From positions 115,568,001 through 115,632,000 of the forward strand of contig OX597818.1 in NCBI GenBank assembly GCA_951406725.2: 64,000 nucleotides of DNA, in the 5' to 3' direction. Under the pieces are notes generated by a model. The model saw nothing but the letters and a program-made list of their open reading frames with translations, was not told the origin of the DNA and made no database searches. The translations under genes were made by a program, and so were the position numbers. Source of the stretch: Octopus vulgaris (lineage: Eukaryota). How positions within the stretch are numbered: position 1 is the stretch's first letter; every line of letters starts with the position of its first letter. Below are positions 6,167 through 61,276 of this stretch, one piece after another.

Positions 6167-7169
6167 AATACTTTGGTTAAATACTACCACCATGGGACGG
6201 CTTTAGTGGAATCCAAAGAATCCACTTTGTTCCAGATATTTCAACCATATTTTTCATCTCAGAATAACCAGTGGTTGTTTCTTACTCCCTTTATTCTCTC
6301 CCAGTCTTGAAGTCCCAGCAAATATTGCAGGCACTTCCCTTTCTTCTTTGATTAAACGTTAAAAAAAGGATTTGAGAAAAGCTGGAATTTTTTCTGCAAC
6401 ACTTGTTGATAGCAATAGTTCTGAACAAGCAGACCTACTAGCAAAAGAAATCCAGGAATGACCATCCCATCTGTTATTCAGACATAGTCTAAGACTGAAT
6501 TATCCAAAGTGTCTTTCTTATTTTTAAAGGTAGACTAGTATAATCTGAAGGAGATTTTGGCTGCAATTTCTAGCAAATAAAGATGCCATGTTCATATTCC
6601 CATGTACAAGAAGTTTGTGGATGGACTAACACACAAGATTATTCAAACCAGTCTCCTTAAACAATAACCAAAGAGGAAAATGAAGGAAGTTCGAAAACCA
6701 ATAATGATCTCTGCAGTTCTTACTAACTATTAGGGGATCGTTAACCCAGGTGTGAAACAGGTGCCACTAAGTGAGGGCACTTATGAATAATTGAGTCAGA
6801 AGAACAAATAAAACTAGCCTACGGGGTCAGTAATAAATAAGCTGTCACCAGCACTATATTGTGCTTAGCCATGGCACCACTCTCAACTGGCACAGTCCAC
6901 CTAGCTGTAGAAGGTGCAACCACAGAGATGATCTGTTCATTGCTGGTCATTGCATTCGCACTGTAAAACTGACAAATGATTTATTGGTTTAAAGAATCAA
7001 GTTCTACTCTTTCCTTGGATGCTGTCAGAAGAAGAGTTGTATCAAACATGATGGTCACCCATGGATGGATACTATTGCTCAAGAGACATCAAGTATTTGA
7101 CTTGATCAACAGTTGCAACATACAGTAATGTTCTAGTTTCTAATACAGGGTAAGTTCAATGTGCCCCAC

Positions 7170-7327
7170 AGCTGTGGTCGTGTGGTAAGAAGTTTGCTTC
7201 CCGACCACATGGATCCGGGTTCAGTCCCACAGAATGGCACCCCTAAAGCAAGTGTCTTCTACTATAACTTTAGGCCAACCAAAAGCCTTCTGAGTGGATC
7301 TGGTAGACAGAAACTGAAAGAAAACTG

Positions 7328-7380
<53 letters not shown>

Positions 7381-7560
7381 TGTTTTTGCCCCCACTATTT
7401 GACAACTGGTGTTGGTTTGTTTTCATCCCTGTAACTTAGCAGCTCAGCAAAAGAGATTGATAGAATAAGTACTGGCATCGATTTGTCCAACTAAGGTTCG
7501 TCAAAGCAGTGCCCCAGCCTGGCCACAGCCTAATGACTGAAACAAGTAAAAGATAAAAGA
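7170..7560 (+). mobile_element. SINE family A with internal (TG)n
   Basis: Degenerate full-length copy with a (TG)~25 tract at ~7327-7379. Confidence 0.8.
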
Positions 7561-8510
7561 ACTCCAAAAGAAGTACACACACTTCTTGACCTTCTTCCGA
7601 AGCAAACCCGTAGAGCTTAGCCATGAGAGGTCCTTAATTATGTAGACACCAACTTAATTGTGAAATGCCAATCTCTTTTTTGGCTACAGAATTCCTCTTT
7701 CAATGAAAATTGGAGAAGTGAATGCAATCTTATTATTTGGTGTGGCAAAGGGAAAAAAAAAGGAACCAAGAAACATAGAATTAAGTCTAAAATACTTTGG
7801 CACAGCTCCAGCATGGCTTCAGCTGTGAAGGCTAAAATGAACTAAAGAACTCGTTGAGCATACATTAAGATGCCTCCTGCTAACACAAGATGTGGGTGTA
7901 GCAGATATGGTCGAAAATATGCCAGTAATGAAACATATGTGCAAACACAGATAAAAATTTTAAAAGACAGAACGAAACCCGAACAGAGCATAAGTTTGTT
8001 TTTTTTTTATAATTTACTATTATACAATTATAATTTGACCATGTTGTTATCATTTTAAAGGTAAAGGTTAAAATAAACTTTAAAACTACTCTTTATAATA
8101 TATACCTATTCCTGTTGCTTTCATCAGTAGCATGCATCTGTATATAATTGCTTAAGTAGAGCAAGAGATGTGATGTGCTGATAAAGATTTTGGCAACTTG
8201 GTTTCAAACTTGGTCGTCATTCTCAGTTGGAACTCCTTTATATTGTTAACATCTTCCAGTAGAGCTAAGGCAGCGAGCTGGCAGAATCGTTAACACACCA
8301 GGTAAAATGCTTAGTGGCATTTCATCCTTTATTATGTTCTGAGTTCAAATTCTGCCATGGTTGGCGTTGCCTTTCTTCCTTTCATGGTCGATAAAATAAG
8401 TACCAGTTGAACACTGGGGCTGATGTAATCAACTTGCCCCCTCCCCCAAATTTGCTGGCCTTGTGCCAAAATTTCAAATCAGTATTGTCCAGTAGAGTTG
8501 ACCTGCCTTT

Positions 8511-13298: not shown

Positions 13299-13565
13299 AG
13301 AGTGCGGGCTACTAACCCCAAGATTCCAAGTTCAATTCCAGGCAGTGACCTAAATAATAATAATAATAATAACATAAAAAAATATCTTAGGAATCAGAAC
13401 CTATGTTCGAAATTTCCCCCAGACACCTGATGAAGGCTGGAGGGTATATCAGCCGAAATGTTGTGTTAACAATAAACAAGGTGAGGACATATATCCGTCA
13501 AATGTAAACAATGTAAAGAATGTAAATAATGTACATAATTCCTCGTCTCTTAAATATAGAACTGT
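13299..13565 (+). mobile_element. tRNA-head + hammerhead retroposon (family H), copy 1
   Basis: Partial tRNA-like head (GGGCTACTAACCC...AGTTCAATTCC...TGACC), (AAT)n linker, hammerhead at 13422-13467 and the shared 3' end ...TCTCTTAAATATAGAACTGT. Confidence 0.8.
13422..13467 (+). ncRNA. Minimal type I hammerhead ribozyme motif
   Basis: GACAC-CUGAUGA-A-GGCUG(GAGGGUAUAU)CAGCC-GAAA-UG-UU-GUGUU. Stem I GACAC/GUGUU and stem II GGCUG/CAGCC are intact; there is a C>U (CpG decay) in the stem III palindrome. Confidence 0.7.
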
Positions 13566-16435: not shown

Positions 16436-16806
16436 TACAGTGATACCTCGCAGTATGAGTTTAATTCGTTCCATGACCGAACTCGTCTTACGATTTACTC
16501 GTTTTACGAATCAATTTTCCCCATTGAAATTAACTAAATTATAATTAATCCGTTCCAGCACCCAAAAAAACACTCAAAATAATTTTCCATGGGTTTCAAT
16601 ACAGAAAAGGTGTAGTTACGTGTAAAATGGCATTTATAAAAAAAGCAAATGCAAAGGAAATATGTAAACTGGTTTTATTAACTGAATAACATTAAAGGCG
16701 AGATGATTTGTGTGCTTGTACTGCGGATTTTCCGCTCATACTTCAAGACAAAAATTCGCACAAGCCTTGGCTCAAAAAGCAAACTGCCTGTACAATGGGT
16801 CACTCA
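16436..16806. mobile_element. Tigger/pogo-like MITE, right end missing where family H begins
   Basis: TA|CAGTGATACCTCG left end and an internal TTTTCCCCATTGAAATTAA motif typical of Tigger-like elements. The right terminal inverted repeat (TIR) is not seen. Confidence 0.55.
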
Positions 16807-16807
16807 T

Positions 16808-17223
16808 GTACATTATCTACATTTGACAGATATTTGTCCTCATCTTGTTTGTTGTTAACACAATGTTTCAGCTGATGTACCCTCCAGCCTTCATCAGGTG
16901 TCTTGGAGAAATTTCAAACATGGGTTCTCATTCCTAAGATATTTTTCAATGTTGTTGTTATTATTATTATTAATATCCAGGTCACTGCCTGGAATCGAAC
17001 TCAGAATCTTGGGGTTAGTAGCCTGAACTCTTAACCACTATGCCATATGACCGTGGGCAATTATGGAGTGAATTTTAGGGCTTACAAATAATAATAATAA
17101 TAACAACAACATCGAAAAATACCTTAGGAATGAGAACCCATGTTCAAAATTTCCCCAAGACACCTGATGAAGGCTGGAGGGTACATCAGCCAAATATCCG
17201 TCAAATGTAGATAATGTAAATAA
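16808..17223. mobile_element. Family H inverted pair (minus arm 16808-~17086 with full tRNA head; plus arm ~17087-17223)
   Basis: Minus arm has a hammerhead at 16857-16902 and a tRNA-like head at 16980-17052 (GGTCA...TGACC acceptor stem, A-box TGGCATAGTGG, B-box GAGTTCGATTCC). Plus arm keeps CTGATGA and stem II but lacks the GAAAC half. Confidence 0.8.
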
Positions 17224-25437: not shown

Positions 25438-25750
25438 GTTCTATATTTAAGAGATGAGGAATTAGGTACATTATTTACATTATTTATATTTGAAGGACAC
25501 TTGTCCCCATCTTGTTCGTTGCCAACACATTTCAGCTGATACACCCTCCAGCCCTCATCAGGTGTCCCGGAGAAATCTCAAACCTGGCCTCCCACTCCTA
25601 AGGCACGTTTTTCAATGCTTTTATTATTATTATTATTATTATTCAGATCACTGCCCGGAATCAAACTCAGAATCTTAGGTTTAACCATGGGCATATGGCA
25701 TAGTGGTTAAGAGCACGGGCTACTAACCCCAAGATTCCGAGCCCAATTCC
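25438..25750. mobile_element. Family H inverted pair, T>C (A>G on minus strand) hypermutated
   Basis: Minus arm 25438-~25683 has a degenerate hammerhead at 25524-25566. A plus-strand tRNA head follows at ~25689-25750. Confidence 0.8.
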
Positions 25751-25757
25751 ATATAGG

Positions 25758-48875: not shown

Positions 48876-49099
48876 TATTTACATTATTTACATTTGACGG
48901 ATATTTGTCCTCATCTTGTTTGTTGTTAACAATGTTTTGACTGATATACCCTGCAGCCTTCATCAAGTGTCTTGGGGAAATTTCGAAACTGGGTTCTCAT
49001 ACCTAAGGTATTTTTCAATGTTATTATTATTGTTATTATTATTCAGGTCACTGCCTGGAATAGAACTCAAAATCTTGGGGTTAGTAGCCCACACTCTTA
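48876..49099 (-). mobile_element. Family H copy (hammerhead degenerate)
   Basis: Partial tRNA head and (AAT)n linker; the core reads TTGATGA...AAAAC instead of CTGATGA...GAAAC. Confidence 0.8.
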
Positions 49100-49335
49100 T
49101 CCGTCCAGAAACACTCCCCAAACTTTCCCATTACTTATAAACCCTCTTGCTTTTCTCACTCCAACACCTCTGACCATCAAAGCTTTCCTCACTCCATCCA
49201 TCTACACAAACCGAGGTCTGCATCTGGTTCTGCTACATACCACTTCTGCCTTTATCGCTCTCCTTACCATCTGCTCCTCATCCATCCTCTCCATATGGCC
49301 AAACCATCTCAACATTCGTCTATCCATTTTGGTTG
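49100..49335 (-). pseudogene. RTE-clade LINE ORF C-terminal remnant
   Basis: Minus strand KMDRRMLRWFGHMERMDEEQMVRRAIKAEV...RPRFV*MDGVRKAL contains the RTE LRWFGHxxRM motif. Confidence 0.75.
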
Positions 49336-53707: not shown

Positions 53708-54386
53708 TTAACCCTTTTGATACCAACCAGGCTGAAACCAGCTCTGGCTCTGTAGTATAAATGTCTTGTTTTCATAATGAAAGGCATTCTGTCCATGACC
53801 ATCTTGTCGTTATCATTCAGCTAGTGTTAGGAACATAAATTGTGACTAAGGTTTGAGGGAAGATTTTAATTCAAAACTTATGAAAACAAGACATTGGTAC
53901 CCAGAACCAGAGGTGGTTTTGGCCAGGTTGGTAACAATAGTGTTAAGAATTGTTTCTCTATTATATATTTTAACCCTCTTGTGACCATATTTCTGTTGAG
54001 ATGCTCTGTGTTTCTTTCAATTAATTTTCAATATAACAAAGGACGGTTCAACTGGGGTCTGGCAAGCCCGAAGGCTGCACCAGGCCAGTCAGATCTGTAG
54101 AAACACTGCCAGATCTGACTGGCCTGGTGCAGCCTTCGGGCTTGCCAGACCCCAGTTGAACCGCCCAACCCATGCTAGCATGGAAAGCGGACGTTAAACG
54201 ATGATGATGATGATGATGATGATGAAAGGATTTAGTAAAATAAAGTAGTTATCATTAAGCTAGTGTTAGGAACATAAATTGTGACTAAGGTTTAGTGGAA
54301 GATGTTAATTCAAAACTTATGAAAACAAGACATTTGTACCCAGAGCCAGAGGCGGTTTTGGCCGGGTTGGTAACGAAAGGGTTAAC
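53708..54386. mobile_element. Rearranged family E MITE cluster with nested foldback C insertion
   Basis: Left-end fragment 53708-53777, inverted partial unit to 53946, a 23-bp spacer, then unit 53970-54386 interrupted at 54041-54224. Confidence 0.75.
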
Positions 54387-60472: not shown

Positions 60473-60797
60473 ACAGTTCTATATTTAAGAGATGAGGAAT
60501 TATTTACATTATTTACATTCGATGGATATTTGTCCTCACCTTGTTTGTTGTTAACACAACGTTTCGGCTGATATACCCTCCAGCCTTCATCAGGTGTCTT
60601 GGGGAAGTTTCGAACCTGGGTTCTCATTCATAAGGTAATTTTAATAATAATAATAATTACTTCAAAAAATACCCTAGGAATGAGAACCCAGGTTGGAAAT
60701 TTCCCCAAGACACCTGTTGAAGGCTGGAGGGTAAATCGGCTGAAATGTTGTGTTAACAACAAGATGAGGACAAAATATCCATCAAATGTAAATAATG
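60473..60797. mobile_element. Family H inverted pair without tRNA heads
   Basis: Minus arm 60473-~60642 and plus arm ~60660-60797 meet at (AAT)n. The plus-arm core is mutated to CTGTTGA. Confidence 0.85.
60553..60598 (-). ncRNA. Minimal type I hammerhead ribozyme, intact core
   Basis: GACAC-CUGAUGA-A-GGCUG(GAGGGUAUAU)CAGCC-GAAA-CG-UU-GUGUU. All core nucleotides are present, with palindromic AACGUU in place of stem III. Confidence 0.8.
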
Positions 60798-61276
60798 AAT
60801 ATATTTTTCATTCTATATTTTTTCAACTTTTCATTAATCACATTCTTACAGATTGTCCTTTGGAATTAAAAACCATGGCATTAAGAATTCAGATCTACTA
60901 AGATTTTTGCAATCTTGGCACCTTATCTCCATTATGCCATAGACATTAAAAAGTCAGGACCTCCATTAATTGAGTTCCTTCACATAACGCAGAGGTCAAA
61001 AGGCAGACATTTCCATTATCTACTTTCATGGTGCTATCAGTCCTAAGTGCATTTTCACACATACACACAATCTCTCCATGGCCCTCCCTCATCCTCACAC
61101 ACACATATGAATGCAGCAGCAACAAGCACTTCACTGATGTAGAGTAATTAAAAGAATTAAACTGAAAAAGAATAACAAAATACAAACTATAACATAGATA
61201 ACAAAAATTACTTTCAGTGATGTGTTTCATGTCACATTAACAAAAATATGTTATTTTATAGGGGGGGGGGTCAGCT

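Follow-up and report, generated by a model that had tools for sequence, protein, structure and literature searches.

Family H, a short repeat of the Octopus vulgaris genome that joins a tRNA-like head to a hammerhead ribozyme motif, is the pseudo-LTR of an autonomous Penelope/Poseidon element and not a free-standing SINE. Its copies pile up at the 5' boundary of the head, which points to an RNA start at this position. The cassette resembling a tRNA, with which the pseudo-LTR opens on its 5' side, is rather likely to be an internal Pol III promoter that starts the element RNA. The element works like a SINE factory inside a Penelope-like element (PLE), yet it is not a SINE family. Both the transcription of PLEs and the reason why most genomic PLE hammerheads are solo fragments are poorly known. 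The cassette provides a sharp marker of the apparent RNA start, and the internal-priming model established for an anole element then predicts exactly the copies of about 280 nt that are observed.

The window, a 64,000-nucleotide stretch of contig OX597818.1, contains five related copies, at 13299-13565 (+), 16806-17090 (-), 25438-25683 (-), 48876-49102 (-) and 60473-60642 (-). They are 76-90% identical, in agreement with a first-pass annotation that had assigned five loci to one family. A hammerhead seed search of the window (up to 2 mismatches) gave 8 matches, compared with 1.3 expected and a number that 0 of 100 shuffles reach; seven of these matches are family H, and one, at 1883, is unrelated. 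The seven hammerhead-bearing arms are spread over the five loci, three of which are inverted pairs, a feature that the first-pass annotation had missed. The features are as follows, the inner and outer tail ends being two alternative 3' ends:

13299-13565, + strand: solo pseudo-LTR, 5'-truncated within the head (+21), with the outer tail end (by sequence comparison)
13422-13467, + strand: minimal hammerhead with stem I, core, extra A after A9, stem II and GAAA (by sequence and column counts); its palindrome has decayed through a CpG change, and the predicted cut is after 13462
16806-17090, - strand: main arm with the final ORF codons, spacer, full head, (AAT)n, hammerhead and inner tail end
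17082-17084, - strand: stop codon of the PLE ORF, followed by a 29-nt spacer at 17053-17081
16980-17058, - strand: tRNA-Arg-like head, with nt 1 at 17052, the A box at 17035-17045 and the B box at about 16991-17002
17058, - strand: putative RNA start G(-6) of the 16.8-kb arm
17090-17223, + strand: inverted partner arm with linker, 5' half of the hammerhead, internal deletion and inner tail end
25438-25683, - strand: diverged arm with the outer tail end and a degenerate hammerhead
25685-25751, + strand: inverted head arm starting at -4, the instance in the window of the head-start hot spot
48876-49102, - strand: solo pseudo-LTR cut off at head +16, with core C3 changed and the inner tail end
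60473-60642, - strand: arm with an intact hammerhead (60553-60598) and the outer tail end; its open 50-codon frame is the N-terminus of the PLE protein
60659-60803, + strand: inverted partner arm that stops at the inner tail end

The 73-nt head at 16980-17052 (-) and its absence at 60.5 kb are as the first-pass annotation described them, as are the (AAT)n linker and the 3' end common to three loci. The same holds for the absence of a simple-repeat or poly(A) tail, the copies ending at the PLE tail. The annotation was mistaken in finding no ORF, as the body of the repeat is an open frame, and its translation can be aligned to the N-terminal part of a PLE protein of full length. The 16.8-kb copy, which extends 38 nt upstream of the head, takes in the ORF stop codon together with the spacer. 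No further ORF piece of the PLE was found in the window by BLAST, and no target-site duplication was seen by eye at the five loci. Elsewhere in the window, at 54061-54145, lies a near-perfect GC-rich inverted repeat with arms of about 35 bp, for which Rfam gives only a sub-threshold miRNA-like match.

Searching with the bases upstream of the head yielded loci in which the head follows coding sequence. One of these has a 569-codon open frame that ends just before the head and is accompanied by an inverted 5'-truncated partner. Among 7,999 scored proteins, 2,992 are relatives of this frame, many of them 810-855 aa long and some with a Pfam GIY-YIG domain. The Pfam RVT_1 profile matches one copy with E 3e-11 and a second with 2e-6, the latter below the cut-off, and a PDB search with the element protein returned weak RT matches only. 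The Pfam GIY-YIG profile has no match in the octopus copies, the motif being visible by alignment with homologues that carry PF01541: DKG, the YxDD region and C-terminal GIY-YIG-type motifs align with eight homologues, three of which carry this domain. The C-terminal endonuclease reads CxC..Y.GET..EH..DH in the alignment, and by inspection a linker zinc finger is absent. DKG, an RT core and GIY-YIG without the linker zinc finger fit the Penelope/Poseidon clade as delimited in PMC8557442; membership of the element in this group is secure. The single ORF with RT and C-terminal GIY-YIG, DKG and no linker zinc finger resembles PAc-type Penelope/Poseidon elements as outlined in PMC11167929 and PMC8557442, and differs from Neptune and Nematis, which have an extra zinc finger between RT and EN that is not seen by inspection of the octopus element.

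In the unit, the ORF stop is followed by 29 nt, the tRNA-like head, (AAT)n, an ATG, the hammerhead, the tail and the rest of the ORF (RT, GIY-YIG); since the ATG precedes the hammerhead, hammerhead and tail make up the first ~55 codons. Several lines of evidence support this order. The distance from stop to head is 27-30 nt in 42 ORF-bearing arms. Of 30 RT-selected loci, 17 have the head about 670-890 nt beyond the RT match, and one more, which has an internal deletion, has it at 180 nt. On the other side, the terminal bases ...TATAGAACTGT run straight into the 5' part of the ORF; the tail adjoins the ORF start directly in most of 37 ORF-start loci and also in five longer loci, and two loci, L212 and L221, form partial tandems. 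Read through the hammerhead, the frame stays open and is 40% identical over 211 aa to the N-terminus of homologue P0003, including PKRCVNN. The 3' ends of 126 arms fall into 65 at the inner tail end, 59 at the outer and 2 elsewhere; Penelope/Poseidon elements have an optional tail of 30-40 bp, which the octopus element matches with its two 3' ends. PLEs are known for inverted partner arms and for a choice between two 3' ends, and the octopus element has both. Taken together, the stop spacing, the tail-ORF junction, the open hammerhead frame, the two 3' ends and the anole parallel identify family H as a pseudo-LTR. The first-pass annotation had correctly linked the family to PLEs. It had pictured a separate non-autonomous SINE/retrozyme hybrid, and had named a head inside a long autonomous PLE as grounds for refuting this; the stop-to-head spacing in the 42 arms places the head in just such an element.

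The anole parallel is close. In Poseidon of Anolis (PAc), hammerhead and ORF start overlap, and the tail is delimited by two internal sites from which reverse transcription sets out (PMC11167929); insertion in vitro did not depend on cleavage, for which protein was required. The octopus element shares with PAc-type PLEs the pseudo-LTR, the inverted 5'-truncated partner, the two-site tail in the 5' end of the ORF and the hammerhead over the ORF start. Unlike in PAc, the 5' edge of the octopus pseudo-LTR bears a tRNA-derived A/B-box cassette with (AAT)n, where most copies start, and the ATG precedes stem I, so that the whole hammerhead is coding.

The head is colinear with the host tRNA-Arg(TCG), with 42 of 73 positions identical without gaps and an alignment score of 41 against a shuffle maximum of 29. 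This is the best match among 34 host tRNA hits, a set without Asn, His or Ser(GCT) genes, and it leaves the earlier description of the head as Ser/Asn-like unsupported. The A and B boxes are kept, the cloverleaf is lost (folding z -0.6 and +0.6), and ARAGORN, a tRNA gene finder of the kind the annotation had suggested, calls no tRNA here. Head-start and ORF-linked copies do not differ in their B box, which is intact in 15/17 and 17/20, respectively. The head sequence is likewise the same in 24 head-start and 49 ORF-linked arms, where column counts give no diagnostic site. A 12-nt B-box deletion, considered as a class marker, was frequent only in the set whose query carried it (12/29) and was dismissed as a selection effect. 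No related free-standing SINE head was found in 664 kb at E<1e-4, and ARAGORN, which misses the octopus head too, called no tRNA on eight distant metagenome PLE loci. The unusual trait of the element, an autonomous PLE, is that a cassette derived from a tRNA sits where its RNA apparently starts. In the literature we found no report of a tRNA-derived segment in a PLE pseudo-LTR and no description of a PLE-mobilised tRNA SINE; this comparison covered publications, and the family may be catalogued in Repbase, Dfam or SINEBase. The main text of a 2026 octopus repeat annotation (PMC13282606) has 0 mentions of a hammerhead.

Where does the element RNA begin? The furthest 5' point was scored in 44 loci not selected for 5' extent (29 found by body similarity, 10 random and 5 from the window): 25 stop at -10 to +5 of the head, 5 continue further upstream and 14 stop earlier. 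Among the loci that reach the head, 25/30 stop within 16 nt of its start, compared with about 3% expected from a background truncation of 0.002 per nt, or 3.2% per 16 nt, in 27 upstream-extending loci (counted without the query locus, a duplicate and a locus that had no score). The probability of such an excess is about 6e-33, and 4e-10 even at a tenfold hazard; the random and window loci alone place 7/9 at the hot spot. Judged by eye, about 12/25 of the hot-spot junctions are symmetric fold-backs at a GCCC-NN-GGGC hairpin and about 13/25 are not, and in one locus a template jump occurs exactly at G(-6). Both kinds of junction, fold-back and non-fold-back, would be explained if the RNA began at about -6, which is 13 nt ahead of the A box. 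A spacing of 13 nt from start to A box suits a type 2 Pol III promoter. Two loci (L200/L236 and L209/L237) run from the head start through the tail into the ORF and stop 230-340 nt into it; a copy spanning the entire ORF from a head start was not found. Three of the five ORF-start loci that extend as far as the head continue beyond it (to -54, -180 and -397), which indicates that longer read-through RNAs also served as templates.

The Pol III idea of the first-pass annotation likely survives in another form, with the cassette as the putative promoter of the PLE itself. The RNA would begin at about G(-6) wherever a pseudo-LTR precedes an ORF, and the PLE protein would initiate reverse transcription from within the RNA, at one or the other tail end, as anole Poseidon does in vitro. 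From the first tail, only ~280 nt would be copied before the RNA 5' end is reached, and there the cDNA may fold back on the GCCC-NN-GGGC hairpin, jump template or join the target; the outcome would be tens of thousands of SINE-sized solo copies without a separate SINE lineage. Priming at a downstream tail would give the rarer ORF-bearing, 5'-truncated copies, and the inserted short copies are probably dead ends. A bolder version, which we regard as rather unlikely as a whole, is that an autonomous PLE swapped its promoter for a captured tRNA-Arg cassette, that Pol III transcribes the whole 2.7 kb and that the ORF was purged of TTTT; the element would then be its own SINE, one promoter yielding both an uncapped mRNA with the ribozyme in its first codons and a flood of solo pseudo-LTRs.

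The distribution of four-base runs lends modest support to the Pol III reading. Conserved runs on the sense strand of the 2.7-kb unit number 0 for T4, 0 for G4, 30 for A4 and 7 for C4; that G4 is missing as well counts against the argument. The modal coding sequence of 2,340 nt has 0 T4 where synonymous-codon nulls expect 3.1 (P0 0.023) or 4.3 (P0 0.006). Eight distant PLE ORFs, used as a control, have 41 T4 with 40.5 expected. In the first 1.7-kb segment alone the depletion is not significant (P0 0.10), and L091, the copy used as frame, has 3 T4 with 3.1 expected. Two RNA-seq runs (about 6 in 100 reads of each) cover both directions at equal depth, following copy number, and show no start or end peak at the head or at the ribozyme cut, in libraries of a type ill-suited to short unpolyadenylated RNA. 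Both runs contain the fold-back at the hot-spot hairpin, with 293 and 248 reads having loose ends at L077:773, possibly from one transcribed locus. Go-back joints in the RNA reflect the permuted reference, and among the joints listed the tail-to-head joint occurs 0 times, the library type being unsuited to circles.

The main competing explanation is that the head is a dead passenger, namely an old, AAT-tailed retrocopy of a tRNA or short SINE that lies in the 3' UTR of an ordinary PLE with Pol II transcription, and that the pile-up stems from the GC hairpin or from a chance Pol II start; family H would then belong to an ordinary PLE family. We consider this doubtful, with a limited chance of being right. 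A hairpin of 4-5 bp does sit exactly at the hot spot, where it is used by about half of the junctions and could itself attract them, and fold-backs at small palindromes occur elsewhere too (L043); however, about 13/25 of the hot-spot ends and the template jump at G(-6) bypass it. Read-through tandems exist, the two RNA-seq runs, of a library type unsuited to short unpolyadenylated RNA, contain no visible Pol III product, and the promoter of D. virilis Penelope is internal, LINE-like and within the pseudo-LTR, with an intron (PMC2377424). Against a passenger, the start lies 13 nt before an A box that is intact although the cloverleaf is lost, and the T4 depletion, modestly significant, is missing from the control PLE ORFs.

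It is improbable that family H is a separate non-autonomous SINE/retrozyme lineage, whose own short copies would be Pol III-transcribed and re-mobilised in trans by the PLE protein. The majority of copies are short and start at the head, just 1 of 10 random loci reaches into the ORF and the short unit is without T4, all of which would suit such a lineage. However, the head belongs to the autonomous element, no diagnostic site separates the 24 head-start from the 49 ORF-linked arms, and the divergences of both classes are similar. In addition, the template of anole Poseidon must reach +172 of the ORF, past the main priming site (in the assays reported in PMC11167929), and by analogy tail-ended copies may lack what is needed. 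Nor do the 44 loci contain tandem arrays of the short unit, all being single or inverted; such arrays define metazoan retrozymes (PMC7229834). Very improbable is a third possibility, in which RNase P cleaves the head as a tRNA mimic and so sets the 5' end of an RNA processed from a longer transcript. The 5' ends do cluster near tRNA position 1 of a segment colinear with a 73-nt tRNA, but neither a cloverleaf nor an acceptor stem is predicted, and many ends lie at -5 to -8, upstream of the expected RNase P cut.

For the favoured promoter reading, the nearest analogues of the cassette are the non-autonomous TRIMp3 LTR elements (Cassandra, Helenus and Ajax; PMC10886601). In both, a small-RNA-derived segment with A/B boxes, which in octopus is a putative Pol III promoter, lies in the terminal repeat and is not a functional tRNA. 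TRIMp3 are proposed to have originated by SINE insertion into a terminal repeat, and their autonomous partners are expected to use Pol II (PMC10886601). They are non-autonomous LTR elements with PBS, PPT and target-site duplications, whereas the octopus cassette lies in a protein-coding PLE: in place of two LTRs with PBS and PPT around a non-coding interior, the octopus interior is a PLE ORF. If Pol III transcription is confirmed, the element would correspond among PLEs to what TRIMp3 are among LTR elements, with the difference that it is autonomous, and would show one way in which repeats that look like SINEs can arise without a SINE.

Like tRNA-derived SINEs as defined in PMC3531059, family H has a length of about 280 nt, a tRNA head, a high copy number and a 3' part in common with an autonomous partner. 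Unlike in those SINEs, the octopus head is also common to the partner, a simple-repeat tail is absent and insertions are inverted in the PLE manner; with its head in the autonomous element, the family is not an independent non-autonomous lineage. The tRNA-derived SINEs of octopus include OK, OR1 and OR2 (Ohshima and Okada 1994), of which OR1 and OR2 are cited as CORE-SINEs. Short repeats with a type I hammerhead also occur among metazoan non-LTR retrozymes (PMC7229834). Those retrozymes consist of tandemly arranged units, have canonical hammerheads and form circular RNAs, whereas the octopus copies lie dispersed, singly or as inverted pairs, and bear the minimal motif of PLEs; tandem monomers with a canonical type I hammerhead were not present at the 44 loci. 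The Sm-alpha repeat of schistosomes is another short repeat with a type I hammerhead.

The hammerhead is of the standard minimal PLE type that is already known. As the annotation had stated, it is a minimal dimer-type motif, and it matches the type defined in PMC4209133 in its 5-bp stem I, the extra base between A9 and 10.1, the G10.1-C11.1 pair, the palindromic 15.2-16.2 without stem III, and its occurrence mostly as single motifs of truncated PLEs. Compared by sequence with that type, no difference was seen; stem II has 5-6 bp in octopus. The AACGUU palindrome that had been claimed is present in full, as AACGTT with an intact core, in the 60.5-kb (-) arm and not in the other six of the seven arms. 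Rfam scans called neither a hammerhead nor a tRNA at family H copies; with ARAGORN silent as well, both identities rest on motif inspection and pairwise comparison. Energy folding yielded neither an active monomer nor an active dimer hammerhead.

All 11 core positions are intact in 63/107 arms, 33/107 having the CG palindrome in addition. Excess conservation of the core, for which the annotation had suggested a check, was rejected: the core is not more conserved than its flanks (96.3% vs 95.1% at non-CpG sites, with CpG at 82%), and the hammerheads of inserted copies decay neutrally. The sole frequent non-CpG variant within the motif is at the free position N7, which fits selection on source elements only. 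In 109 arms, N7 is T in 89, A in 18 and C in 2, and A occurs in 8/27 scored RT-selected arms compared with 0/15 random and window arms, a dimorphism hinting at two source lineages. Where a pseudo-LTR precedes an ORF (L074, L077, L083, L090 and many loci of the series L199-L235), its start often lies 3' of the predicted cut, and these starts are scattered and not at the cut itself. In distant PLE relatives on metagenome contigs L193, L194 and L197, the ORF match is followed at a distance of about 150 nt by a motif that resembles the hammerhead.

Copies were found in 10/60 evenly spaced 10-kb stretches, which for a genome of 2.8 Gb gives about 47,000 loci (95% range 22,000-86,000), which could be mis-filed as a tRNA SINE. 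The mean difference from the column majority is 4.6-8.0%, depending on the set, with CpG decay, indicating that the family is old and mostly inactive. Sequencing runs X1-X20 (12 studies, six organism labels) contain 28-62% of the words of the element; all 30 bins are covered by run X18, which has a different organism label, and the element thus occurs under more than one label. Linker-truncated copies (L024, L079, L023, L006 and L126) often lie next to other repeat families at the side where these end in (AAT)n, which points to microsatellite homology at the joint or to a preferred target. At about 1610-1640 of L051, three CCCTAA telomeric units lie within the end of the PLE ORF, and L018 is similar, the units being shortly upstream of a head-start copy. 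In L091, a 201-codon frame at 6978-7580 (-) resembles, by eye, a fragment of a Tc1/mariner transposase.
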